Below are positions 4,070 to 23,536 of a stretch of 64,000 bases of DNA, one piece after another. A model generated the notes under the pieces. The model saw only the letters and a program-made list of their open reading frames with translations, made no database searches and had not been told where the DNA came from. Both the position numbers and the translations under genes were made by a program. The stretch spans positions 8,895 to 72,894 of the forward strand of contig CAZWHE010000001.1 of assembly GCA_964633825.1 (NCBI GenBank), written 5' to 3'. Origin of the DNA: an uncultured Phycisphaerales bacterium (lineage in GTDB: Bacteria; Planctomycetota; B15-G4; CAYZWU01). Each line of letters starts with the position of its first letter. The first letter of the stretch is position 1.

Positions 4070-5392
4070 TCAGGAATCACCGTTCACCCAGTCGAGCACA
4101 TCTTTGGCGCCCGTGGCCGTACTTCCGACCAGGGCTTGATGGGCCGTGTCTTGGATATCGGTGGAGAAGGGGCCTTGAATCGACGATTTCCGCCGTATGT
4201 CATCCAGCGCTTTGATCGCGACCTGCGATGCCGAATCGACGCACGCCATCATGAGGAGCAGTTCGATTACGGGCTTGGCCTGTTCCTCGCTCTTCCACGA
4301 TTCGATCTCCTTGTTCAGCTTTTTGATCGTCTCGTTGTAGTCGTACCGTGCCGATTCCGTCTGGTTTCTATCCAGGTCGATCGTTGAGCAGACATGCCAA
4401 AGCCAGAGGTGGCATGCCTTGCCTTTGGATTTATAGGAATCGCGCGCCATCTTGCGGGCTCGATAGAGCTTGTCCTTAATGACGGCATCGATAATGCCCT
4501 CAACGTCCGGTTCGTTTTCTCCAAACAGCTTTATGAGTCTATTCCTTTTTTCGCGCTCATACTCGTCGAGATAACCGTCGGCACGATCAACCCACTTCGA
4601 TTTCTCTTCCAAAAGAGCGAGGCGTTTAAAAACTTCCCCGGCTTCGTCTTTCAACCCGGAGTCCCACAGGTAGAGCCCCAACATAAAAGCGACCTCATGG
4701 CAGAGCGGGTAATCGCGGCGCGCCTTCCGCATTATATTCAAAGCCTCCTTCTCTCTCCCGCTGTCCCAGAAGGCGGCGGCCTGATCCAAGGCTTTCCTGA
4801 TGCCGTCGATTTCACTGTTTTTCTGCTTGACCTGTTCATCGACTCTTTCCATCTCGCTTTTCGGATACTCGACGAGCGCTCCGCAGTCGTACCGGACTTG
4901 AGTCGTTCGACCCATGAACAGAAAGCTGTAACGGCTCGTCGTGACCTTTTCGACATAGTACGACCTGCCCCGGGTTTTGCGAACGGACTGGTCGACCAGC
5001 GTCTTGATTATCTCTTTCAAGCTCGTCGTATCATCGTCGTTTCTAACGCTGGTCCGTTCTTCGTAGATCTGTTTCTCCAGCCAGCCGGCGATCTCTGATC
5101 GGGCTTTGTCGACGGCCCTCCGGCGGGCGTCGTCATAAGTCTTGCTCCTCTCGCTGTAACCGGTGAAGTAGATACAGGCCCCGTCCGGTTCGGGAGGATC
5201 GGATTTATACCAGGCCGGGATGGTGCGGCCCGGGGGATCGGACTCACGGATCGGTTCGATAGCGCACCCGGCCAGCCCGGCGAACAGAAGAGCCGGAAGA
5301 ACGGCTTTCCACGGCGTCGGTGCTCTTCTCAAATGCCTTCTCCTCTTTCTCCGGACTCCGTCATCGCCCGTCCGCGCGCTCCCGCCGTTCAT
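4070..5392 (-). CDS. Predicted lipoprotein, LPP20-like N-terminal domain plus TPR-like helical C-terminus
   Basis: Basic N-region, hydrophobic stretch and lipobox LAGC; FTGYS..DDARRRAVDKARSEIA resembles LPP20-type domains; TAATG overlap with the upstream gene. Confidence 0.7.
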   Translation of the reverse strand: MNGGSARTGDDGVRRKRRRHLRRAPTPWKAVLPALLFAGLAGCAIEPIRESDPPGRTIPAWYKSDPPEPDGACIYFTGYSERSKTYDDARRRAVDKARSEIAGWLEKQIYEERTSVRNDDDTTSLKEIIKTLVDQSVRKTRGRSYYVEKVTTSRYSFLFMGRTTQVRYDCGALVEYPKSEMERVDEQVKQKNSEIDGIRKALDQAAAFWDSGREKEALNIMRKARRDYPLCHEVAFMLGLYLWDSGLKDEAGEVFKRLALLEEKSKWVDRADGYLDEYEREKRNRLIKLFGENEPDVEGIIDAVIKDKLYRARKMARDSYKSKGKACHLWLWHVCSTIDLDRNQTESARYDYNETIKKLNKEIESWKSEEQAKPVIELLLMMACVDSASQVAIKALDDIRRKSSIQGPFSTDIQDTAHQALVGSTATGAKDVLDWVNGDS

Positions 5393-6690
5393 TACCTGGG
5401 CTCAAGAAGGAGATCGTGTATCTTGGAATGAACGACGTCGCACGCCTCCCGGGTTTCCGAGATGAGCATGTCCCCCTCATTCCGGGCGAACTCCGTGATG
5501 GGCCGGCCTCTTTTCCCTTTCTCGAGAGAAAGAACTCGGCTGTTGAAGATCACTTCGTTCTCGGGAAACCTGATCACCTTGTATTCGCAGTCCACCTTCA
5601 TGGAAGCCGCGGACTCAACCCTGTCACGCCAAATCCCCCATTCCCATATCCGGATGTCGATCACAGTGTTGGCCCCGAAGTGCTCGGCCAGGCCCTTGTA
5701 ATTGGGCAGGCGCCTTATTTCCTGTCCCCGGCGTTCCTTGACGACAGAGTGCTCGTCGAAGTACTTCAGTGTTTCGTCGATATCAACCACATCGAATTCC
5801 GCGCTCACGACGAGCGAGCGATGAACCCTTTCGATCAGCTCCCTGTGAATGTCGAAGCTCCGCCTGCAGAGATAACCCGAATACTCGTCTTTGACCCTGT
5901 CGTCCGATCCGGAACCGAAGAGCGTGCCGAGCTTGCCGAAAAATCTCTCGTACCCGTAGCGATTGTAGTAAACGCTCAACCCCGCGTTCCGGGTCATCCG
6001 GACACGGCCGGAATCAAGAACGCGGGAAGGCACGATCACGATCCGATCGATCTTTTCCATGTCTTCGCGCGCCATGAAGGGATGGTCATTCCCCGTCCAC
6101 TCTCTGGGAAAGTCATCGTGCATGTAATCGATAAAGAACAAACCGAGAATGAAATCGGGAATCTCCTTCAGGTGAACCTCGACACCGGCATTAGCGACCC
6201 CGGCGGTCGCCTCGGCCCCGATGCCCCAATAGTCGCGGTGGTTCATATATTTCATGTAATAGTCGTCATCGGTGTAGTTGAGGAAATTGCCGAAAGCGTT
6301 CTGGCGCTTGTAGTACTCCGTGCTGAACGGAAGGAGAGAGAATTCGGCTTTCACGTCGTTGCACAGGCCGAACCTGCGTCCGTCGAATCCCAGCCTGGAG
6401 ACCGTCGCCGCGCCGGCGCCGAACTGCAGCAGCCGTGTGGCGTGCGCGTTGACATGGACGCCGAAGCCGAAACCGAACTGAAAAGAGATGATGTCGAACA
6501 AATCAGCGATACGGTTGACCGGCCACAATGCGATCTTGGCCATCACGCCCGTCGGCTCTCCCTCGTCGCTGATCTTCCAGGTCCGGTCGTAGTCATACCA
6601 GGTGCGCTCTACATCTTTTAATGCCTTATCTGATCCGCAGCCTGTTGCCAGAAGGAGAAGCAGACAAAAAAGAGCGAGATATTTGAACAT
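5392..6690 (-). CDS. Predicted lipoprotein of unknown function
   Basis: Start moved to ATG 6690 (GGAG RBS upstream); MFKYLALFCLLLLLATGC lipobox; Gly-rich hydrophobic segment FQFGFGFGVHVNA. Confidence 0.75.
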   Translation of the reverse strand: MFKYLALFCLLLLLATGCGSDKALKDVERTWYDYDRTWKISDEGEPTGVMAKIALWPVNRIADLFDIISFQFGFGFGVHVNAHATRLLQFGAGAATVSRLGFDGRRFGLCNDVKAEFSLLPFSTEYYKRQNAFGNFLNYTDDDYYMKYMNHRDYWGIGAEATAGVANAGVEVHLKEIPDFILGLFFIDYMHDDFPREWTGNDHPFMAREDMEKIDRIVIVPSRVLDSGRVRMTRNAGLSVYYNRYGYERFFGKLGTLFGSGSDDRVKDEYSGYLCRRSFDIHRELIERVHRSLVVSAEFDVVDIDETLKYFDEHSVVKERRGQEIRRLPNYKGLAEHFGANTVIDIRIWEWGIWRDRVESAASMKVDCEYKVIRFPENEVIFNSRVLSLEKGKRGRPITEFARNEGDMLISETREACDVVHSKIHDLLLEPR

Positions 6691-6919
6691 CGCAGATTCT
6701 CCTGAAACATCAAAACACTTCACACCCATGGGTCAGACCGAATACCGGTTAAAGCCTTCAACTCCGGATATTTAAAAGACTTTCAAAAACCATGTTTTCC
6801 GCTGAAAGAAAAAAAATAACCGAATCGAGCTATAATTTCAAAAGAAATGGAGGATCTGTCCGGAGCCGGATCAGAAACTTTGCCCATTCGTCAGGGATTC
6901 CGGCACATGGACAAACGCA

Positions 6920-14062: not shown

Positions 14063-14605
14063 TCAGAGCTCTTCATATCGGATACCGCGGCCGCAGGCCG
14101 GTTCGATATCGCGTAAAAGCCCGTTCAGGGGGCCGTCATCCCCGGTCGTTTCGAGAAAGGAGCTCGCTTCTTTCCTTTCAGCCGCTGTTTTCAGGATCTC
14201 CCGGCGCGCTTCGAGTCTGACACGCTTCGTTTTCAGCCGCTCCAGACAGGCACGCGACGAAGCCCTTTCTCTCCTCACTTCAACGAGCTCTTTTCTGAGC
14301 TCCGCTTCACAGGCGCGGCTTATTCTCTCGATATTCAGATCGGTATATCCGGCAGAGGAGCCTGTTTTCTTTATTTCGCCGATTACTTCGTCGAGCCTCT
14401 GAAACAGGATTTTTTCCGTCCGATCCAGTCTCTGCAGAACGGACTGGACTTTAGCGATCCGCAGGTTGATCTCATTGATGCCGCTTCGCGCGGGCTCTTC
14501 TTCTTTCCGTTTTTCATTCGAACCCTCATACCCGGGAATCTCGAGCCCATCCCAGGTCACAACGAAGAGAAAGAGAGCGGCGCAGATTATGGTCGATATT
14601 TTCAT
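14063..14605 (-). CDS. Coiled-coil hairpin protein with N-terminal signal or anchor
   Basis: Start moved to ATG 14605 (MKISTIICAALFLFVV); two long amphipathic helices separated by a G/S loop. Confidence 0.6.
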   Translation of the reverse strand: MKISTIICAALFLFVVTWDGLEIPGYEGSNEKRKEEEPARSGINEINLRIAKVQSVLQRLDRTEKILFQRLDEVIGEIKKTGSSAGYTDLNIERISRACEAELRKELVEVRRERASSRACLERLKTKRVRLEARREILKTAAERKEASSFLETTGDDGPLNGLLRDIEPACGRGIRYEEL

Positions 14606-14660: not shown

Positions 14661-15494
14661 CTAAAGATTACCTTTTTCGATCTCCTCGAAGCAGGCCTCG
14701 ATATCGGCGACCACGTCTCTGTCGGACGAGACTCCCGGTTTCGAGTAGTCGATGCCGCCCACATAGTCGCCGTTGATGCGAATCCTCTCTTCGAGAATCC
14801 GATCCTTCATATCGAGCTGCTTCTCGAAATCGGCCAACATCTTCTGGGTCTTGCCGATCTCGGTCTTGAATTCATGCGCCAGATCGACGGCGTTCACCGT
14901 TTCGGCGAAGATCTCCTTTGCCTTGTACTTCTCGAGCTCGGCCTTCAAAAACATCACCTTGGCCGTGAGCTCGACTTTCACGTTTTCGGCGTTGGTCACA
15001 TTCTCGCGGGCCATCTCGAGGGTGCCCTTCTTGGTTCTCAAAGTTTCGGCGAGATTCTCCAGGGTCTCGCCCTGGATTCTGAAGATCTTGAGCTTCTCGG
15101 CGGCATCGCGCGACACCTCGCCGTGGGAGTACTCCCGGCCGCCGATCAGGTATGCTTCCTTTCCATCGGCAAGAAGCCGCGACGCGCGCTCCAGCGTCTC
15201 GCGGAGCCTCCCCGAGGCCTCTTCCTTCTCGGCGATGATGCCTTCGAGGTACTCCACATCCACCTGGCGGCGGATCACGTCGGTCTTCAGTTTCTCGATC
15301 TCCCTTTTGAGACCGCTCACCTTGGTTTCGAGGAGAGCCAGCTTGGTTTCGAGCCCCTGGGCTTCCTCGATCTTTTCCTGAATGATGCGCTTGCCCGTCC
15401 CGGCATAGAGCTTGAGCTTCTCGGGATAGACAAGAGCACCCACGACTCCGACAACCACAACGGAAAGAATGAACAGCTTGAATATGGTCTTCAT
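14661..15494 (-). CDS. PspA/IM30 (ESCRT-III)-like coiled-coil protein with N-terminal TM anchor
   Basis: TM segment LFILSVVVVGVVGALVY; long helix ending RASRLLADGKE (compare the PspA hairpin A..AL..G.E); further long helices. The CDS is solid; the family call is inference. Confidence 0.6.
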   Translation of the reverse strand: MKTIFKLFILSVVVVGVVGALVYPEKLKLYAGTGKRIIQEKIEEAQGLETKLALLETKVSGLKREIEKLKTDVIRRQVDVEYLEGIIAEKEEASGRLRETLERASRLLADGKEAYLIGGREYSHGEVSRDAAEKLKIFRIQGETLENLAETLRTKKGTLEMARENVTNAENVKVELTAKVMFLKAELEKYKAKEIFAETVNAVDLAHEFKTEIGKTQKMLADFEKQLDMKDRILEERIRINGDYVGGIDYSKPGVSSDRDVVADIEACFEEIEKGNL

Positions 15495-15544: not shown

Positions 15545-15982
15545 TCAATCCGCCGCACACGCCGATGGCTGCTCGGCAAAAGCGGCCTGATGATTGTTCT
15601 TATTGTGGGCCGACAGAAAAGCGTCGGCGATACCGATGAAGTATGGAATGACGAGCCAGCTCGTCACGAAGATGAGAACACCCTTGAGAATCTGGTGGTT
15701 GTAAACCTGGCCGGCGCCGGGCAGGACAGTGCTCAAGAGGGCGGCCAGCACGGGATCCTTGTAATCAGGCCGGCCGCAGCAGGGGCATTCGAGCATGCCC
15801 TTCACCGCCGCTTTGATGTGATGAGACGGCCGGCTGGGCCGGGGATTTTCTCCGAAGCGTTTCAGGCAGCACGGGCAAGCGCCGGCCCCCTTCTCGCCGA
15901 GCGAGGGAAGCCTTTCCCCGCAATACCCGCAGTATTTTTCGTCGTCCTGTGCTTCAGACTTTTTCTTTTTGAGCAGAAACAT
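15545..15982 (-). CDS. Small Zn-ribbon membrane protein with KDP..A..LS..PG.GQ.YN motif
   Basis: CGYC, CPCC and CPCC clusters, then KDPVLAALLSTVLPGAGQVYN and TM helices; GGAGG RBS. Confidence 0.75.
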   Translation of the reverse strand: MFLLKKKKSEAQDDEKYCGYCGERLPSLGEKGAGACPCCLKRFGENPRPSRPSHHIKAAVKGMLECPCCGRPDYKDPVLAALLSTVLPGAGQVYNHQILKGVLIFVTSWLVIPYFIGIADAFLSAHNKNNHQAAFAEQPSACAAD

Positions 15983-16544
15983 GATGACCTCCGCAACCCA
16001 TCATAAGCGACAAAGCAAAAGCCGCGGCAAAACCGGTCCAGATCGCCCAGGGCGGGATGACCACACCCATACCGTCGGGCAGCCAGACAAAGAGGAAGGC
16101 GAGCAGGGCGGCGGCGCCCCAGAGCATCCAGTCGCCCTCCCCGACGGTCACCCCCCGCGTCCCTTCATCGAGGCGGTTGTTCTTCTTGATCGCCGCCATG
16201 CGCGCATCCCAGGCGCAGAAGAGGAGGAGAAAGATCAAAACCGGGAGCGGCACGACATCCCTGTTGCCGAAACAGACAAGAGCGCCCGCGAGAAAGAAGA
16301 GCCCCCGAAAAACAGAACCGCAGTAGATCTGTCCCAGACCGGGCATCGCCGAGAGCATGAAAGCCAGGGTGGGCGACTTGAAATTCGCCTTTTTCTTCGG
16401 CTTTTTGAAGGGCTTTCGCCCCGGCACGCAGTCGGGGCAATAGTTTTTCGACTTGTCGAGCCTCCTGCACTCGTGGCAGACGGTCTTGCCGCAGGCCACG
16501 CAGCGCGCCGCGCCCGGTCTTTTCGTGTGTCCGCAGTTCGGCAC
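15954..16544 (-). CDS. B-box-type Zn-finger membrane protein with the same motif
   Basis: CGH..CVACGKTVCHEC..YCPDC; KSPTLAFMLSAMPGLGQIYCG; about four TM helices; GAGG RBS and GTG start. Confidence 0.8.
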   Translation of the reverse strand: MPNCGHTKRPGAARCVACGKTVCHECRRLDKSKNYCPDCVPGRKPFKKPKKKANFKSPTLAFMLSAMPGLGQIYCGSVFRGLFFLAGALVCFGNRDVVPLPVLIFLLLFCAWDARMAAIKKNNRLDEGTRGVTVGEGDWMLWGAAALLAFLFVWLPDGMGVVIPPWAIWTGFAAAFALSLMMGCGGHHVSAQKEKV

Positions 16545-16572
16545 GATACACCTCGCTTTCTTCCACGGGTTA

Positions 16573-16590
16573 TTTCAAAGGGTGTGCCCG
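16573..16590 (-). promoter_or_regulatory. Putative sigma54 (-24/-12) promoter, non-canonical -12
   Basis: CGGGCACACCCTTTGAAA = GG-N10-GA with GGCAC and TTG conserved; implied start about 16563, just upstream of the RBS at 16551-16554. Confidence 0.45.
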
Positions 16591-16787
16591 GAGATGAAAA
16601 AAACGGCGCCCATCAAAAAAACCGAGCGGCCGGATAGGCAAAATCATGCGGCAGGGACGCCTGAGCACCGCGAAGAGCCGGTTTGGAATTTCCGGAACAA
16701 ATAAAAAAAAGCGATCGGGACTCTGGCGGCACTTGGAGGGTGGAATCACATGGAGTCAAGAAAACCGACACGCCGTGTCAAAAGTCT

Positions 16788-18788
16788 TTACGCTTCCGGG
16801 CTCGCTTGTTTGTTGATTTCTTCAGCCCCGGTATGGGCCTGCCGGATTCCATAAAAATAGGGCAGAATGAGCCAAAAGGTGAGCAGAACGAGGATGCCTT
16901 TGCGGGTGTCGCCGTTATAGAACTGCCCCAGCCCGGGCAGCATGGCGGAAAGGACGGCCGCAAACACGGGATCCTTGCGGCGCGGTCCGGGCCGGAGAGA
17001 TTGCCCTTCTTCCTTCTTTTTTCTATGAAAAAGATGATGCAAAGGACCGCGGCCTTTTCCCATGTGCTTCTCTTTGGGTTTTTTCTTGGGCTTTATCTTG
17101 GCCTTTTTCCGTGCGAAATAAAAAGCGCCGGCCGCCATGTCGTGAAGGGTGCGCTTTTCAGGGCTCATGAAGAGGTACCCCACGTCGATAAGCAGCCAGG
17201 CCAGACAGATCGTTCCCAGCGTGGGAACAATTGTCGGCTGGGCCGTCTCGGAGGCCCTGGCAAGACCGTCCAGCGCGCGACAGAAAGCGTTCCCGCCCTG
17301 ATCCCACGACTCGATGAATAAAATCGGAAACTTCGCACCCATTCCGAAAAGGACGGGATAAAAGAGAAGTGTCCTGAAAAAAGCCGCCACCCAGCCAAGG
17401 TCCTCGCCGCTCGCCTTTCCCACGCGGCATCTGAAGAACGTCTTGCCCAGGGTGACTCCCCCCTTCGCATCGGAGATGAAAAAATAGAAAAAAACGAAAA
17501 GGAGAAAGACGGCATCCCACAGCCAGTATCGAAAGACCCCGCTCTCGAGGTTGTACAGAGCGGACAGAACCGCAAAATCCCCCGCCCAGGCAAGGAAGCG
17601 CCTCAAAAGCCCGGCCCGGACGAGCCGGATCTCCTCGGAAGCGGGAGCCTCCCTTTCTTCGATCACATAGCTCGGTATTCTCCTGACACCCTTTGAGCGC
17701 TGCTGATCCTTGCTCTTGTCACGGCCCCGCCCCTGTTCGGAGGAAAGAGCGGGAGCCCGCCCTGTCTTCAAGGATTCGAGGTCGGCAATGAGGGCCTCGT
17801 ATGACGTGTACCTGTCATCCTTCTTCTTGGACATCATCTTCCGGATAACGGCCGAGAGCGCAGCCGGAATCTTCGGATTGCGCGAGTCGGGCGGGGGGAG
17901 GTCATCCCTGATGTGCCTGAGGATGATGCCGACCGGGCTCTCCGCTTCGTAGGGCGGGGATCCCGTCAGGAGGTGGTAAAAGGACGCGCCCAGGGAATAG
18001 ACATCGGTTCTGTAGTCGAGGGGGCGGCTTTCGCCCTGCTCGGGCGACATGTAATAGGGCGTTCCCACGATGGCGCCCGTCAGGGTCAGGCTGCTCTGGC
18101 TCGACGCGATCCGGGCCAAACCGAAATCAGTGATTTTCAGGGTCCCCTTCTTGTCGAGAACCATGTTGGACGGCTTGACGTCCCTGTGAATCACCCCTTG
18201 GGCCGCGGCCGCCGCCAGGCCCCGGGAAGCCTGGATCATGAGGTCGATCGCCCGGTCCGGATCGAGCGGTCCCTCTCTCCTTAAAAGACGGTCGAGGTTC
18301 TCGCCGTCCACCAGCTCCATGGCATAGTAGGGGATCCCTTTCCACGTGTCCGTGTAATAGATCTGGACGATGTGAGGATTGTTCAACCGCGCCACGGAAC
18401 GGGCTTCCCTCTGAAAGCGGGCGACGAAATCTTTCTGTTCCCGCAGCTTTCCCGAGAGGATCTTGAGCGCCACGTTCCGCTGAAGCTTTTGGTCCACGGC
18501 GATGTAGACCTTTCCCATCCCGCCCTCGCCGATTACACCGGTCACGCTGTAGGGCCCCAGGGAAGAACCGATCGCAATGTCGCCGGGCCGGGGGAGTTCG
18601 AGAGTCGTTGTGACACGATCTCCGCCGGGAGAAGGACCACCCTCACGCGACGGGGGGCGGCTCGAATCTCCCGGAGGGAGGACATTGATCCTTTTGCAGG
18701 ACGGACACTCGAACTCGACGCGGTCGTCCCCCGGTTCCTTGACCAGGATCTCGCCGCAGGGACAGATGATTTCGACCGTGTCCTTCAT
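16788..18788 (-). CDS. Hanks-type Ser/Thr kinase with N-terminal Zn ribbon, RDD domain and C-terminal TM motif
   Basis: CPCG..CPSC; GEGGMGKVY, VALK, HRDVKPSN, DFGLAR, GTPYYMSPEQ; RAGLLRRFLAWAGDF..GVTLGK RDD pattern; KDPVFAAVLSAMLPGLGQFYNG. Start set at ATG 18788. Confidence 0.92.
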   Translation of the reverse strand: MKDTVEIICPCGEILVKEPGDDRVEFECPSCKRINVLPPGDSSRPPSREGGPSPGGDRVTTTLELPRPGDIAIGSSLGPYSVTGVIGEGGMGKVYIAVDQKLQRNVALKILSGKLREQKDFVARFQREARSVARLNNPHIVQIYYTDTWKGIPYYAMELVDGENLDRLLRREGPLDPDRAIDLMIQASRGLAAAAAQGVIHRDVKPSNMVLDKKGTLKITDFGLARIASSQSSLTLTGAIVGTPYYMSPEQGESRPLDYRTDVYSLGASFYHLLTGSPPYEAESPVGIILRHIRDDLPPPDSRNPKIPAALSAVIRKMMSKKKDDRYTSYEALIADLESLKTGRAPALSSEQGRGRDKSKDQQRSKGVRRIPSYVIEEREAPASEEIRLVRAGLLRRFLAWAGDFAVLSALYNLESGVFRYWLWDAVFLLFVFFYFFISDAKGGVTLGKTFFRCRVGKASGEDLGWVAAFFRTLLFYPVLFGMGAKFPILFIESWDQGGNAFCRALDGLARASETAQPTIVPTLGTICLAWLLIDVGYLFMSPEKRTLHDMAAGAFYFARKKAKIKPKKKPKEKHMGKGRGPLHHLFHRKKKEEGQSLRPGPRRKDPVFAAVLSAMLPGLGQFYNGDTRKGILVLLTFWLILPYFYGIRQAHTGAEEINKQASPEA

Positions 18789-18807
18789 GCCTCGATTCAA
18801 CGGAACC

Positions 18808-20700
18808 TTACTCCGTCTCCTTGATTCCATACAGCTTGATCTTGTCGTAAAGCGTGGGTCTGCTGATGCCAAGAATACGGGCGGCCTGTTTCTTGTTCCA
18901 CCCCGCATATCGAAGCACACTCACCACATGCGCCCGCTCTACCTCTTTGAGGGTCACTTCCGCATCGGGAGCCGCGGTCTGGGCGTCGCCGGCTCGTCCC
19001 GTCCAGTTTTCGAAAGCGAGAGGCCCCTCATCGGCCAGAATCAGCTCTCGCTCGAGAACATTTCGCAGCTCACGGACGTTTCCCGGCCACCGGTGGGCCC
19101 TGAGACGCTTCATCCCCGCGGGAGAGACCGTTCTTTCCCCATGGGCCAGTTTCTTCAGAAGATGCGAGACGAGCTCGGGTATGTCTTCGGCGTGCTCCCT
19201 GAGGGGCGGGGCTTCGATCTGGAACACGCGGAGACGGTACAAAAGATCTTCGCGGAACTCGCCCTTCGCTGTTTTATCGTCCAGGTCGGTGTTCGTGGCC
19301 GCAATGATTCTTACGTTCACATGGACCGGCGCTTCCCCGCCAACGGGGTAAAAGCTCTTTTCTTCCAGAACCCTGAGGAGCTTCACCTGAATCGGGAGAG
19401 GGAGCTCACCCACCTCGTCGAGAAAGAGCGTCCCCTCGTGGGCCAGCTCGAAGCGCCCGAGCTTCCGGTCGACGGCCCCGGTGAAAGCGCCCTTCTCGTG
19501 ACCGAAAAGCTCGCTCTCCACCATGGATTCGGGGATGGCGCCGCAGTTGATCGATACCATGGGCCTCTCACACCTCCCGGACTGTGAGTGAAGGGACGAG
19601 GCGATCACCTCCTTGCCGGTCCCGCTTTCCCCCACGATCAGGATCGTGGCGTCGGCGGTCGCTGCCTTCCGTACGAGCGTGCGGACATGCTCCATCGCCT
19701 TGGAACGACCCACCAGCTCGGTCGTGCCCGGCACCTTCGACCGCAGGATTTTGTTGTCCCTTTCGAGCCTGTTCCGGTATCCCAAGTTCTCAATAGCCAG
19801 GGCCGCCTGGGACGTGAACGCTGCCAGGACCTGCAGCTTTTCCTTTCCGAAGGACGTTTCCTTTCCGAAGGACGTTTCCTTTCCGGGCACACCGAGGGAA
19901 GAGAGGTAGACTGCGCCGGTGACCCTGCCCGCCGATCTCATGGGCGCGGCCAGGATGCGGGCTGTTCCGGCGGCGGCAATGGACCGCGCCTTGCGCAGCG
20001 CGGGGTCGTTCAAGGGATTCACGGCCACAACGGAAACGTTGCCGCCCATCACCTTGTCGAGCACCGTTCTGGAAGGTCTGTATTCCTCTACGCCGCTTCT
20101 GTTGATCTCACTAAGAATTTTTATATCCTCGCCATCATCGCCGTCCCGCAGGAAGACGCATCCCAGGTCCATTCCAAAGAGATCCATAACAATGGGCAGA
20201 AACTCGTCGAGCATTTTATCCGAGGAATCGGATGTGCCGACCAGTTCGGCCACTCGGAAAAGAGCTTCGATCGGATCTCCGCCGAGACCGGCCCGGCTGA
20301 AGACCCCGGAGTCGGGGACCTTTTCGGCTGCCGCCTTCAGGGCGACCTCAACGGTCGTATCGCCGAATACTTCCGTCTTTTTCCCTGCAGTCGATTGCAT
20401 AGGCTCCCTGTCATAGAGCAGGAGCGAGGCTTGTCCTACAACGATTATGTCTCCGGGCTTCGCAACGGCTTCGGTGACCTTGCTTCCGTTGAGATAGGTC
20501 CCGTTCGTGGAGCCGAGGTCCTTCAGGACGGCTCCACCCTTTCGGGGCTTCAGCTCGCAGTGCTCGCGTGACACACCATCGTCGTCCAGAACAACATGGC
20601 AAGAGGCGGAGCGGCCTACGCGGAGAACGCCCGTCAAGTGGTAAACCTTTTCGATGCTCCCGCGGCCTTTATAAAGTAGGAACAGGTTCTCTTTCGCCAT
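18808..20700 (-). CDS. Sigma54-dependent activator, FHA-GAF-AAA+-HTH
   Basis: FHA VGRS..VSREH..STNGTYLNG; GAF LAAPMRSAGRVTGAVYL; GESGTGKE, GAFTGA, FLDEVGE, WPGNVREL; Fis-type HTH. Start set at ATG 20700. Confidence 0.95.
   Translation of the reverse strand: MAKENLFLLYKGRGSIEKVYHLTGVLRVGRSASCHVVLDDDGVSREHCELKPRKGGAVLKDLGSTNGTYLNGSKVTEAVAKPGDIIVVGQASLLLYDREPMQSTAGKKTEVFGDTTVEVALKAAAEKVPDSGVFSRAGLGGDPIEALFRVAELVGTSDSSDKMLDEFLPIVMDLFGMDLGCVFLRDGDDGEDIKILSEINRSGVEEYRPSRTVLDKVMGGNVSVVAVNPLNDPALRKARSIAAAGTARILAAPMRSAGRVTGAVYLSSLGVPGKETSFGKETSFGKEKLQVLAAFTSQAALAIENLGYRNRLERDNKILRSKVPGTTELVGRSKAMEHVRTLVRKAATADATILIVGESGTGKEVIASSLHSQSGRCERPMVSINCGAIPESMVESELFGHEKGAFTGAVDRKLGRFELAHEGTLFLDEVGELPLPIQVKLLRVLEEKSFYPVGGEAPVHVNVRIIAATNTDLDDKTAKGEFREDLLYRLRVFQIEAPPLREHAEDIPELVSHLLKKLAHGERTVSPAGMKRLRAHRWPGNVRELRNVLERELILADEGPLAFENWTGRAGDAQTAAPDAEVTLKEVERAHVVSVLRYAGWNKKQAARILGISRPTLYDKIKLYGIKETE
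19841..19885. repeat. In-frame 18-bp tandem duplication (GKETSF x2.5) in the GAF domain
   Basis: TCCTTTCCGAAGGACGTT repeated. Confidence 0.9.
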
Positions 20701-20728: not shown

Positions 20729-20764
20729 AGAAGACGATTTCTTCTCCTAGAAGACGATTTCTTC
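20729..20764. repeat. Two palindromic 16-mers at 20-bp period upstream of the activator
   Basis: AGAAGACGATTTCTTC at 20729-20744 and 20749-20764. Confidence 0.8.
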
Positions 20765-23536
20765 CGTCCGGCAATCAAAGAAATCGTAACGGTAAAAGCG
20801 TTCTCTGCTCAAACCGGGAACAATGGACCGTTTCGATGAAAACCCCCCGGCCGGCATTATCCGAGAGTAATAGAGAAACCTCCGGTCATCCACGAGACCG
20901 AGCACTTTCAAGGGACAGGTTCCGGCCCAGACGACTTGTTCCGATTCGTCATCGTACCTGCGGAACAACAGGCGTGTCCCTTCCCTGTCGATAATCAGGA
21001 ACCCCTTGTCGTGATAAAAGGGAAAAAGCCCGGCCGCGTTTCCATCGTAGAGAACACAGGTCTTGTGGGCAACCGGGTCGACGAGGATGATTCTGAGCAC
21101 TCCCGTGGCATCGCTGACCGCCTTTCGCAGCGGGACCGTCTCCCAGACGATGACATCGCCCTGCGCCCTGTCGAGGCAATAGCGGATCTCCTTCCCTTCG
21201 GCGGCATAGCACGACTCCACCCGCGCCGTGGAATCACGGTACAAGAAGAGCTCCGTTCTTTTGCCTCTGCTGCCGACGAAAAAGATCCCGTCATCACATC
21301 CTTTGATATCGGTGAGCTCCACACCGTGCACGGGTATGACGTATGCCACCTTTTCCTCGGTCGAATAGAGAGCGACCCTCTCCCTGGAGCCGGGAGGCAT
21401 CACCGCCCTGACGAGGCCCCTTCCTTCGATGAACTCGAGCCTGTGAAAGATGCGGTTGAGAAAGGAGCGTTCCCTTTTTTCATCAAGGTCTTTGAGCCGG
21501 TGCTGCCAGAACGAGCCCCTCCACTCATTGATCAGGAGCTTGTCCCCCGAGGGCGAGGGGGAGAGGAGCACGTCACTTCCCAGAAATTTGATCCTCTTCC
21601 GATCCGCTTCCACGAGATACCAGCTCGACCCGAAACCTGTTTTTTCCTCCCCCGTTTCTTTGCGTCCCGTCCGGACAAGGAGCCTGTTCTCATTTAGCCA
21701 GACCAGATCGGAGACAAGTGAATCGAAATAAAATGTCCGTTTCCGGCGAAACCCGGAATCGGTCACAACGAGCGGGAAATCTCCCCTCTTCACATCACGT
21801 TCGAGAGCGGCCGCCAGCCAGTTGTTCAATGGAGAAGGAATGACGAGACGAGGCCGGATTTTGATGTAGCCCGTGTTGTTGGAGCGATCCACGTCGGGCC
21901 ATTCGTAGTCCGGGTCGATGACAACACCGACAACCCCCTCTTCCGACAGCGTTTTCTTCCAGACCGCCCGTCCCGATGAGAGCGTCACCTGGTTCGGAAT
22001 TATTTTATTGTCGGTCACAACATCGATGCCGACCTTTCCCCGGAAGTCGAGATCCCCCTGGTTTTCGATAACGACCCTGATCCGGCAGTCTTTCTTCAGA
22101 GGCTGAACGGAAAGATCAGCTACGACCAGATCGAGATCGAGACGGTTCCGGGCCCAGTCCCGGAAAAGCCAGTCGAGCCCTTCCACACCCCGCTCCTTGC
22201 AGCACCGCGACCAGAGATCTTCATTGTCGCTCCCGGGAGGGGCCCGGAGAATCTCGAGGCAAACCTCTTCGAAGGTGTCGTTCCCCACCAACCGCCGTAC
22301 GACATCGAGAAGGAACCCCCCGAATTCAACTCCTTTATCTTCCCTCCCGCTCCTTTCGCGGCCCGACACGGACAAACTCTGCCGCGGCAGGCAGGATCCC
22401 CCGGGAGAAAAGAGATCGACCCTTTTGAAAGCACAGATCCCGTCCTCCCCGCGACTCCGCCCTTGGGAAACGAAGCGGATGGCCCACCCCATAGCAATCT
22501 CTTCCCTCGAAAAGAGGCTGTTTTCCAGCGGCTTCGATCCCGCCTGCAGTTTCGGAGCCATCCAGAGGAGGCCGAAGGCGAAGGCCTGCTCATCGATCGA
22601 CAGGCTGCGGGGAACAAGAAGGGTTCCGGCGCCGTCACAGCGCAGACCGCCCGCGAAGCTTTCCGGCATGAGAATGAAATTCATCGACTCGGGGCGGACC
22701 GCGGGGAGGGATCTCTCGAAAAAACCGTACAAGACTTCGAGGTTTTCCATGAGCCCCGGCGGGCCTGCGCCGAGAGGACAGAGCGCGACCGGTATCTCTC
22801 CGACAGTCATCCTGATCGGGGCGGTTCGACATCCCGCAACCGCGAAAGCCTGAACAGGCCGGGCGAGAGACCACTCGAAACAAGTCCGGCCGGTTCCATG
22901 GGGGAACCGGTCCGGATCAGCGGGCTTGGCCGAGCTCGCCGGCGCCACGGGCATGAATCCCGAAGGAAAGGTGACCCTGAGATCCACATCCATTGCACCG
23001 TTCGAGACCCGCGGATAGTACGCGTCATCGGGATCGAGGTAGATGAGATCATGGGTTATCACGCTCTTCGAGCCCGAAATCCTGAAATCACCGCTGTAGT
23101 CGATTTCGAGAACCCCCGCTTTTTCCGAGCTCACCTCGTCGGGAAAGCCCACCCGGTAGAAAGGGCCTATCCTGCCGAATCCGAGATTCCGCCCCTCCCA
23201 TCTCACTCCGATCACTTTAAGGGCCGGATTCAATCCAAAAAAGAAACCGATCCATCCGGGATCGACGGTCATGTCGATCCTGGCGCTGCCCCTTATCCCG
23301 GCTGTTCCGGTCGCTTCTGCCGTAACGGTATCCAGATCGAGCTGAAGGTCCATTTTGCGGGGGGTCTGGTTCCCGAAGAAAAGGCCCAAGCGGCTGTCTA
23401 AAAACCGGATCGCCGCAGGCGTCCTTTCAAACAGAACAGTGATGCCGAACAGGATAAAGATCAATGCCAGGACAGCGGCCAGCGAAACCGCCATTGCCGG
23501 CTTTCCTCTGAAAAAGCGCCTGAATGATCCGGACAT
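20747..23536 (-). CDS. Membrane-anchored M1-aminopeptidase-like protein lacking HEXXH, with CARDB-like Ig domain and beta-propeller-like C-terminus
   Basis: M1-type beta domain (IYLDPDDAYYP, MDVDLRVTFPSG), VVIDPDYEWPDVDRSNN; no HEXXH anywhere in the translation. Confidence 0.6.
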   Translation of the reverse strand: MSGSFRRFFRGKPAMAVSLAAVLALIFILFGITVLFERTPAAIRFLDSRLGLFFGNQTPRKMDLQLDLDTVTAEATGTAGIRGSARIDMTVDPGWIGFFFGLNPALKVIGVRWEGRNLGFGRIGPFYRVGFPDEVSSEKAGVLEIDYSGDFRISGSKSVITHDLIYLDPDDAYYPRVSNGAMDVDLRVTFPSGFMPVAPASSAKPADPDRFPHGTGRTCFEWSLARPVQAFAVAGCRTAPIRMTVGEIPVALCPLGAGPPGLMENLEVLYGFFERSLPAVRPESMNFILMPESFAGGLRCDGAGTLLVPRSLSIDEQAFAFGLLWMAPKLQAGSKPLENSLFSREEIAMGWAIRFVSQGRSRGEDGICAFKRVDLFSPGGSCLPRQSLSVSGRERSGREDKGVEFGGFLLDVVRRLVGNDTFEEVCLEILRAPPGSDNEDLWSRCCKERGVEGLDWLFRDWARNRLDLDLVVADLSVQPLKKDCRIRVVIENQGDLDFRGKVGIDVVTDNKIIPNQVTLSSGRAVWKKTLSEEGVVGVVIDPDYEWPDVDRSNNTGYIKIRPRLVIPSPLNNWLAAALERDVKRGDFPLVVTDSGFRRKRTFYFDSLVSDLVWLNENRLLVRTGRKETGEEKTGFGSSWYLVEADRKRIKFLGSDVLLSPSPSGDKLLINEWRGSFWQHRLKDLDEKRERSFLNRIFHRLEFIEGRGLVRAVMPPGSRERVALYSTEEKVAYVIPVHGVELTDIKGCDDGIFFVGSRGKRTELFLYRDSTARVESCYAAEGKEIRYCLDRAQGDVIVWETVPLRKAVSDATGVLRIILVDPVAHKTCVLYDGNAAGLFPFYHDKGFLIIDREGTRLLFRRYDDESEQVVWAGTCPLKVLGLVDDRRFLYYSRIMPAGGFSSKRSIVPGLSRERFYRYDFFDCRTEEIVF

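Follow-up and report, generated by a model that had tools for sequence, protein, structure and literature searches.

A TM2/DUF5683-type membrane hairpin shared by three consecutive proteins of a Hanks-kinase cassette in Planctomycetota, and its possible part in intramembrane assembly

Why do three neighbouring proteins with different soluble parts carry one and the same membrane motif? This question is raised by a stretch of DNA of 64,000 nucleotides (nt) from an uncultured Phycisphaerales bacterium (the window, to which all coordinates below refer), taken from an assembly of 4.2 Mb in 310 contigs that is 82% complete. In the window, reading of the open reading frames (ORFs) places three consecutive genes on the minus strand: KIN (16788..18800), which is predicted to encode a membrane Hanks-type Ser/Thr kinase; MID (15954..16544), for a protein of 196 residues (aa) with a B-box-like zinc finger; and ZNR (15545..15982), for a zinc-ribbon protein of 145 aa. 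They stand between a gene for a putative sigma-54 enhancer-binding protein (EBP) and genes for two coiled-coil proteins (CC1 and CC2), all likewise on the minus strand. The answer developed here, to which we give an even chance on the comparative evidence below, is that three proteins of one signalling cassette, each with a cytoplasmic zinc finger, have the motif as their membrane part in common, and that their hairpins would join in a hetero-oligomeric unit.

The shared hairpin and its superfamily

The initial annotation of the window had pointed to one membrane motif in three consecutive proteins, and this has been borne out: the peptides lie exactly where it had placed them, with KDPVFAAVLSAMLPGLGQFYNG at residues 649-670 of the 710-aa KIN ORF (16911-16976), KSPTLAFMLSAMPGLGQIYCG at residues 56-76 of the 196 aa of MID (16317-16379) and KDPVLAALLSTVLPGAGQVYN at residues 75-95 of the 145 aa of ZNR (15698-15760), all on the minus strand. 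When the three proteins were aligned, the similarity extended over about 60 residues with 17 invariant columns, giving the pattern [KR]-[DS]-P-x2-A-x2-LS-x2-3-PGxGQxYxG-x3-[KR]G, then hydrophobic residues that include a conserved Pro, and DA-x3-A-x3-N. A search of all six-frame ORFs of the genome by regular expression and hidden Markov model found these three as the only strong copies (E 4e-24 to 9e-21; next match E 0.28), a count with which Pfam scans of the genome agree. In BLASTP searches against all genome ORFs, ZNR and KIN matched at E = 3e-14, ZNR ranked first and KIN third among the non-self matches of MID, and MID was the second match of ZNR, after KIN; the comparisons indicate that sharing of the motif goes beyond chance. 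Two remote members of the superfamily lie outside the cassette on other contigs, at C129:7474-7860 (LVFPGLGQIVL...) and C72:9847-10266 (LVPGGGHIYIG...), and both end in a W...DAY-like helix.

In this module, helix 1 is kinked at PGxGQ and is followed by a short YNGxxx[KR]G loop, a helix 2 with a central Pro, and a DA...A...N end that is an amphipathic helix. Hydropathy and an AlphaFold2 (AF2) model of ZNR agree on the kinked helix 1, the short loop and a long helix 2 running into DA...A...N, with the helices of the model, made from 39 sequences, at residues 77-86, 90-93 and 98-136. The topology is likely to be in-out-in, since a cytoplasmic position is required for the zinc fingers and the kinase, and helix 1 comes after stretches rich in Lys and Arg. 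The module takes up residues 647-705 of KIN behind a Lys/Arg-rich linker (16806..16982, minus strand), has a long form in MID (16170-16385), which holds two more membrane helices, and a short form in ZNR (15590-15766). It is kept at the C-terminus of every kinase examined, in degenerate form (PGIGLMY) in one locus (L025).

Each of the three proteins also carries a different Cys-rich zinc module, as had been noted at first, and these modules are conserved in 15/15 KIN, 13/13 MID and 39 ZNR sequences. In KIN it is an N-terminal ribbon, CPCG-x15-CPSC (18696..18764, minus strand), which recurs as CxCG-x15-19-CPxC ahead of the kinase P-loop in all 15 KIN orthologues. In MID it is a B-box-like finger (16428-16535) with eight Cys/His ligands conserved in every one of the 13 sequences; its own Pfam zinc matches are weak (DZR 0.0056, ANCHR-like_BBOX 0.65), and zf-B_box matches 11 of the 140 module relatives described below. 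In ZNR it is a ribbon (15866-15931) whose C18, C21, C36 and C39 are invariant among the 39 sequences, while a second Cys cluster (ECPCC) shows no conservation among ZNR homologues.

The profile matches place the module in the known, widespread and promiscuous TM2/DUF5683/DUF6677 superfamily (PF05154, PF18935 and PF20382; COG2314 'YozV'). It has two hydrophobic helices, a G-rich kink in helix 1 and cross-matches to all three Pfam models, and TM2, DUF5683 and DUF6677 modules show the same helix-PGxGQxY-loop-helix-DA signature; the resemblance to TM2/DUF5683 hairpins suggested from the outset is upheld, in that these models match all or some of the three proteins. Against DUF5683 (gathering cut-off 26.7 bits), only ZNR scores above the curated threshold, with 28.4 bits, KIN (23.0) and MID (15.3) lying below it (30.6, 25.1 and 15.1 for ZNR, KIN and MID in the genome scan), and in all three the match spans only positions 3-40 of the 151 in the model, the N-terminal hairpin signature alone being shared. 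Scores against TM2 are under the 27.9-bit gathering cut-off for KIN (20.5, positions 2-45) and ZNR (16.6, positions 3-51 of 51), the Pfam search gave no match of MID to TM2 (PF05154), and DUF6677 is also among the models that match the segment. TM2 domains have a conserved DRF motif in the loop that joins their two helices (PMC8714088). In contrast to this classic motif, which is not found in KIN, MID or ZNR, the cassette modules have the YNGxxx[KR]G type of loop, reading YNGDTRKG, YCGSVFRG and YNHQILKG. The 41 ZNR homologues found in a collection of 5.8 billion proteins are mostly PF18935, and some bear the JGI name 'TM2 domain-containing membrane protein YozV', which is COG2314.

A profile built from the three modules was matched by 5,368 clusters among 1.84 billion representative proteins at E<=1e-3, of which 253 also reached E<=1e-10. 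Architectures and partner domains were counted in the 140 best library relatives, where DUF5683 was matched in 110, TM2 (at E<=1e-3) in 57 and DUF6677 in 49; the partners are signal peptidase I (18), RDD (6), DUF7544 (4) and kinases (2), together with zinc ribbons, TPR, HEAT, TPM and YidD. At least two CxxC motifs stand ahead of the module in 49 of these relatives, and an architecture like that of MID, with a B-box, was found in 11 by Pfam and in 37 by ligand pattern; B-box plus module and zinc ribbon plus module are common architectures in the superfamily. Tandem modules, two to three per chain and spaced 60-120 aa apart, occur in 47/140, and tandem TM2 domains have also been noted elsewhere (PMC3861447). 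The RDD-plus-module proteins of the library mostly look like fragments of kinase orthologues and were therefore rejected as independent evidence. By sequence, no chain in the PDB contains the module (best E 0.59), and in a search of the literature no work on the function of DUF5683 or TM2 proteins from bacteria was found.

Two recurring partnerships were seen in other organisms. One or two module copies are fused before signal peptidase I (Peptidase_S26) in other bacteria (P0053, P0054, P0171 and 15 others, making up the 18 of 140), and fusions of DUF7544 with a single module or with two also occur (P0050, P0073 and P0135). At 4907-6771 of locus L112, a DUF7544 gene overlaps the start of a gene for a B-box-plus-module protein.

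Constraint, gene order and the putative promoter

Modules of the same type share identities of 0.40-0.53 between genomes, and modules of different types 0.31-0.38, the same whether compared within or between genomes. Since same-type identity is higher than cross-type identity and there is no excess within genomes, the three would be old, separate lineages without gene conversion, apparently kept by selection; recent duplication or gene conversion as the source of the copies was ruled out by the lack of excess within-genome similarity. Conservation of segments was taken as mean pairwise identity over one and the same set of 12 genomes, and here module helix 1 ranked as the best-conserved segment of each protein (KIN 0.54, MID 0.65 and ZNR 0.69), on a par with or above the kinase catalytic domain (0.57). 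The other membrane helices are conserved far less (RDD 0.19-0.38, TM4/5 of MID 0.25-0.33, anchor of CC1 0.36), and the zinc fingers lie at 0.42-0.60. In ZNR, the conservation runs all round both helices, with a moment of 0.08-0.11 in the 39 sequences and no variable lipid-facing side. These results on conservation and constraint speak against the module being a generic anchor.

The gene order EBP-KIN-spacer-MID-ZNR-CC1, with all three modules, was found in 16/16 of the relatives whose loci were read, with 100-350 nt between KIN and MID, and EBP and KIN lie directly upstream of MID and ZNR in every locus that reaches that far. The family-wide distribution is judged from ZNR and CC1 as markers: among 41 genomes of one Planctomycetota order, the two are single-copy and adjacent in all 26 of families f1, f2, f3 and f5 and absent from all 15 of family f4, and a sample of 301 genomes of the phylum yielded no further full-length ZNR. 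In the window, the start of ZNR overlaps the end of MID by 29 nt, and MID and ZNR overlap as well in the 12 loci with tabulated gene ends.

The two genes upstream are those of the predicted activator and of the kinase. EBP (18808..20700, minus strand) is a predicted activator with FHA, GAF and sigma-54 AAA+ domains and a Fis-type helix-turn-helix (HTH); its reading frame continues up to 20778, orthologues begin to align at residue 27, and M27 (at 20700) is taken as the likely start. Its Pfam matches are FHA (1.2e-19), GAF_2 (3e-08), Sigma54_activat (5.8e-69) and HTH_8 (3.3e-13), and the translation retains both GAFTGA and the phosphothreonine-binding FHA residues G-R, S-x-x-H and N-G, so that it has the AAA+ sigma-54 domain with GAFTGA and the DNA-binding HTH expected of an enhancer-binding protein. 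The KIN ORF (16788-18920) encodes 710 aa and the called product, starting at 18800, which is 7 nt past the EBP stop, has 670 aa. It is laid out as zinc ribbon, kinase, RDD and module, without a sizeable extracytoplasmic domain, and matches Pkinase (1.3e-49, residues 124-377), RDD (8.7e-15, 436-598), DUF5683 (8.7e-05) and TM2 (5.4e-04); GEGGMGKV, VALK, HRDVKPSN, DFG and GTPYYMSPE make up the full motif set of an active Hanks kinase.

Sigma-54 promoters have GG at -24 and GC at -12 at a fixed spacing of 10 nt (TGGCAC-N5-TTGC). In the spacer of 243 bp between KIN and MID, a candidate -24/-12 element, GGGCACACCCTTTGAA (16574..16589, minus strand), lies 28 nt before the MID start. The single site in the window is unremarkable alone, as there are 9 two-mismatch sites in the window against 17 expected. 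Several ORFs are over-extended when read from their first ATG, and the conserved start of MID was therefore taken as the anchor of the spacers. On this basis, the pattern GG[CT]A[CT]-N5-[TGA]TG, which was defined after seeing the data, was found to end 28-53 nt before that start in 13/13 cassettes; at its genome-wide frequency of 8e-5 per position, 0.0036 would be expected per 45 nt. The GG and the G of -12 are invariant at the correct spacing in all 13, the C that completes the -12 GC occurs in only 4 of them, and an invariant GG-N10-G spacing in at least seven genera does not appear to be a matter of chance. The placing of MID and ZNR behind a putative sigma-54 promoter, which the initial annotation had proposed, is in this way strengthened, with the element conserved in position and core sequence across the cassettes analysed.

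The genome carries one rpoN. The adjacent EBP may be what acts on the spacer promoter, an assignment made because the cassette is conserved and because lineage-specific palindromes lie past the kinase stop. In the window this palindrome is GACACGGCGTGTC (16767..16779, minus strand), just after the stop of KIN, a candidate activator-binding site. Equivalent palindromes in the relatives read GACAC-N3-GTGTC or TGTCG/CGACA in f1 and GTTCG-N1-5-CGAAC, often repeated, in f2 (spacers L018-L029), and they stand 130-250 nt upstream of the -24/-12 element.

Downstream of ZNR, at a distance of 50 nt, lies CC1 (14661..15494, minus strand), a coiled-coil protein of about 280 aa with an N-terminal membrane helix, which is the probable last conserved gene of the sigma-54 unit. 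It has a conserved GGIDY motif near its C-terminus and belongs to no Pfam family. CC2 (14063..14605, minus strand), a second anchored coiled-coil protein, is conserved in family f1 only. The same holds on the other side of the cassette for a protein of 929 aa without a Pfam match (20747-23536, minus strand), which ends 46 nt ahead of the probable EBP start and is kept upstream of the cassette in family f1 only.

Assembly of the hairpins and rival explanations

If the hairpins do assemble, the cassette could work as follows. KIN and EBP would be co-transcribed, phosphothreonine made by KIN would be read by the FHA domain of EBP, and EBP would then fire the sigma-54 promoter in the spacer, driving MID, ZNR and CC1. 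MID and ZNR would most likely dock via their modules onto the module of KIN and onto each other, and the resulting hetero-oligomeric intramembrane unit would set kinase activity (feedback) and/or couple KIN to CC1. This regulatory loop, in line with the feedback suggested in the initial annotation and running from kinase to activator to promoter to MID and ZNR and back to the kinase, is architecturally sound and plausible, because EBP and KIN are so constantly found directly upstream; every arrow in it is one that we infer, as are the standing of MID and ZNR as kinase 'regulators', the sign of the feedback, the contact between modules and the direction of phospho-signalling. A more specific version, which we put forward tentatively and hold to be rather doubtful, is that the C-terminal hairpin of KIN docks two sigma-54-induced zinc-finger subunits, whereby the composition of the sensor, and hence the kinase output to EBP, would shift during the response.

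Several lines of evidence are consistent with assembly of the three hairpins. The three copies are the only strong ones in the genome and lie in consecutive genes, they appear to be old lineages kept apart by selection, and their strict three-fold co-retention goes together with a constraint far above that on the other membrane helices, which in ZNR runs all round both helices. The conserved putative promoter, the presence of rpoN and the intact FHA and GAFTGA residues of EBP also count in favour of the scheme as a whole. Tandem modules in one chain give a fusion-type hint that modules work in multiples, and the overlap of MID and ZNR is as expected for co-assembling subunits. A precedent for assembly is furnished by animal TM2D1-3, which are taken up below (PMC8714088).

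Other observations weigh against it. The similarity of MID to its neighbours is marginal in BLASTP (E 0.03 to ZNR and 0.28 to KIN). The AF2 monomer model of ZNR is mediocre (pLDDT 66.5) and yields secondary structure only, and a protein with two modules (P0051), tried as a proxy for the packing of modules, gave an unreadable single-sequence AF2 model (pLDDT 59.7, pTM 0.27). The lengths of the modules show no obvious co-variation: MID and the kinases of family f2 have a longer module, with a polar insert before the conserved Pro, so that kinases have the short form in f1 and the long one in the aligned f2 sequences, while the module of MID is always long and that of ZNR always short (this comparison was made on f1 and f2 relatives, the f5 copies being left out of the alignment). 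On the side of the promoter, the -12 element of the window is non-canonical (TTGA, not TTGC), and the genome has 11 sigma-54 activators, among which EBP is tied to the promoter by adjacency. Lastly, in 77 of 80 motif-bearing loci from other phyla there is one module gene, and three further contexts that were checked are likewise single-copy. One of the 80 holds two module genes, and only 2 hold three, both of them orthologous Planctomycetota cassettes.

It follows from the 77 single-gene loci that the module needs no neighbouring partners in general, and multi-gene clustering was rejected as a property of the family. The triple arrangement would instead be lineage-specific and vertically inherited, not a habit of the family. 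The motif profile and the listing of partners that the initial annotation had in view bear out a TM2/DUF5683-type family. The locus with two genes, L088 (5764-6991), is the sole non-planctomycete one in which two module genes are adjacent; they encode 291 and 116 aa, the second with PGTGEHY.

The strongest alternative is that the three proteins are parallel sensors or anchors, each module acting alone or as a homo-oligomer and reading the same membrane property or targeting the same membrane region, without the three ever touching through it. Candidate inputs would be lipid packing, curvature, a lipid-linked intermediate or membrane potential, and the module would be shared because one pathway is served. 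It gains from the module being usually single-copy per locus and from its promiscuity (signal peptidase I in 18/140, DUF7544, YidD, HEAT, TPR and TPM), and the strong constraint would suit binding of a ligand or lipid equally well as contacts between proteins. However, the all-round conservation of the ZNR helices and the frequent tandems fit packing of modules better than a lone lipid-exposed hairpin, and retention of all three modules in 16/16 cassettes is not required by parallel sensing, which we regard as the less likely reading.

A second alternative, which we hold to be improbable, would move the contact to the cytoplasm: MID and ZNR would act on the kinase or on EBP through their zinc fingers, for example as substrates, as thiol or zinc sensors, or as membrane tethers that sequester EBP much as an anti-sigma factor does, and the module would do no more than hold the partners in one plane of the membrane. 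In keeping with this, each protein has a cytoplasmic finger of the Cys4 type that is well conserved (identity 0.42-0.60), and 49 of 140 module relatives have at least two CxxC motifs before the module. However, in each of the three proteins the conservation of the module exceeds that of the finger, and reading of the alignments showed no conserved Thr in the cytoplasmic parts of MID and ZNR that could serve as FHA ligand. Contact through the fingers is compatible with assembly of the hairpins and does not exclude it. That the likeness is trivial, a chance hydrophobic resemblance or a recent local duplication or gene conversion without function, draws on nothing beyond the marginal BLAST similarity of MID, has a negligible probability, and can be taken as refuted by the strong profile and family evidence and by ancient, individually conserved lineages, without excess similarity within genomes, whose arrangement is held over four families.

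The more specific version of assembly, if true, would be the first case of a function for the TM2/DUF5683 module of bacteria, that of heteromeric assembly, and would reveal a new envelope-stress-like circuit based on Ser/Thr phosphorylation in Planctomycetota. The interest of such a device would lie in its being the first function for a very large domain family, as bacterial, archaeal and animal proteins in thousands of clusters carry the module. Without interaction of the hairpins, what remains would be a conserved operon of the ordinary kind, for membrane proteins with one domain in common. The cassette is a tractable test case for helix-helix assembly, with kinase activity and the putative sigma-54 promoter as readouts, and it documents a predicted full Hanks-kinase/FHA-activator/sigma-54 circuit in a phylum whose signalling is almost unexplored.

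Comparison with known systems

A likeness in layout is seen with animal TM2D1, TM2D2 and TM2D3 (biscotti, amaretto and almondex in Drosophila), the last of which is Alzheimer-linked. Like the trio described here, these are three paralogues with a shared two-helix domain and divergent soluble parts. Their knock-outs have identical, non-additive phenotypes and the proteins co-immunoprecipitate, and the genetics together with co-immunoprecipitation and mass spectrometry suggest that the three act as one complex (PMC8714088). The animal proteins differ in being eukaryotic, of the secretory pathway and linked to Notch and gamma-secretase, in having no kinase or zinc fingers, in the opposite orientation, with an extracellular N-terminus as opposed to the cytoplasmic N-terminus of the cassette proteins, and in their remote sequence relation.

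Among envelope-stress systems with accessory membrane proteins, LiaFSR-LiaIH (Bacillus) and PspF-PspABC (enterobacteria) have an operon for small membrane proteins and a coiled-coil effector that is under the control of an intramembrane-sensing kinase or a sigma-54 activator; once induced, the membrane proteins act back on the sensor. The logic proposed for the cassette resembles that of LiaF and LiaI or of PspB and PspC. However, the kinase of the cassette is of the Hanks Ser/Thr type, with an FHA domain as its proposed reader, and is not a histidine kinase, and LiaF, PspB and PspC domains are absent. CC1 was considered as a homologue of PspA and this was not supported by Pfam, genome scan or hhalign: PspA_IM30 (PF04012) gave no match in 11 CC1 orthologues at E<=10, comparison of CC1 with 8 planctomycete PspA sequences gave an hhalign probability of 0.9%, and a profile search of the PDB with CC1 returned coiled-coil noise only. 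Canonical PspA (PF04012) was not found at E<=10 in this 82%-complete genome or in two genomes of the same order, and is present in 15 of 61 sampled planctomycete genomes. A relationship of CC1 and PspA at the level of the fold is possible; with no detectable profile relationship between them, the likeness to Lia and Psp is therefore an analogy of circuit logic and not a matter of membership.

The input side of the circuit has its counterpart in Myxococcus xanthus, where FHA-domain sigma-54 enhancer-binding proteins paired with Ser/Thr kinases were reportedly described by Jelsbak et al. in 2005. The likeness is that the activator is of the NtrC type with an FHA domain where the receiver would be, so that input from a Hanks kinase is implied. 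Myxococcus xanthus belongs to another phylum, whereas the relatives of the cassette are Planctomycetota, and in the cassette the kinase lies directly downstream of the activator, the putative target promoter lies within the cassette, and a GAF domain is present in the activator as well. The motif as such had been known before and the cassette is made of known parts, but it is apparently undescribed, and what appears to be new is the threefold use of the module around a Hanks-kinase/FHA-activator/sigma-54 circuit.

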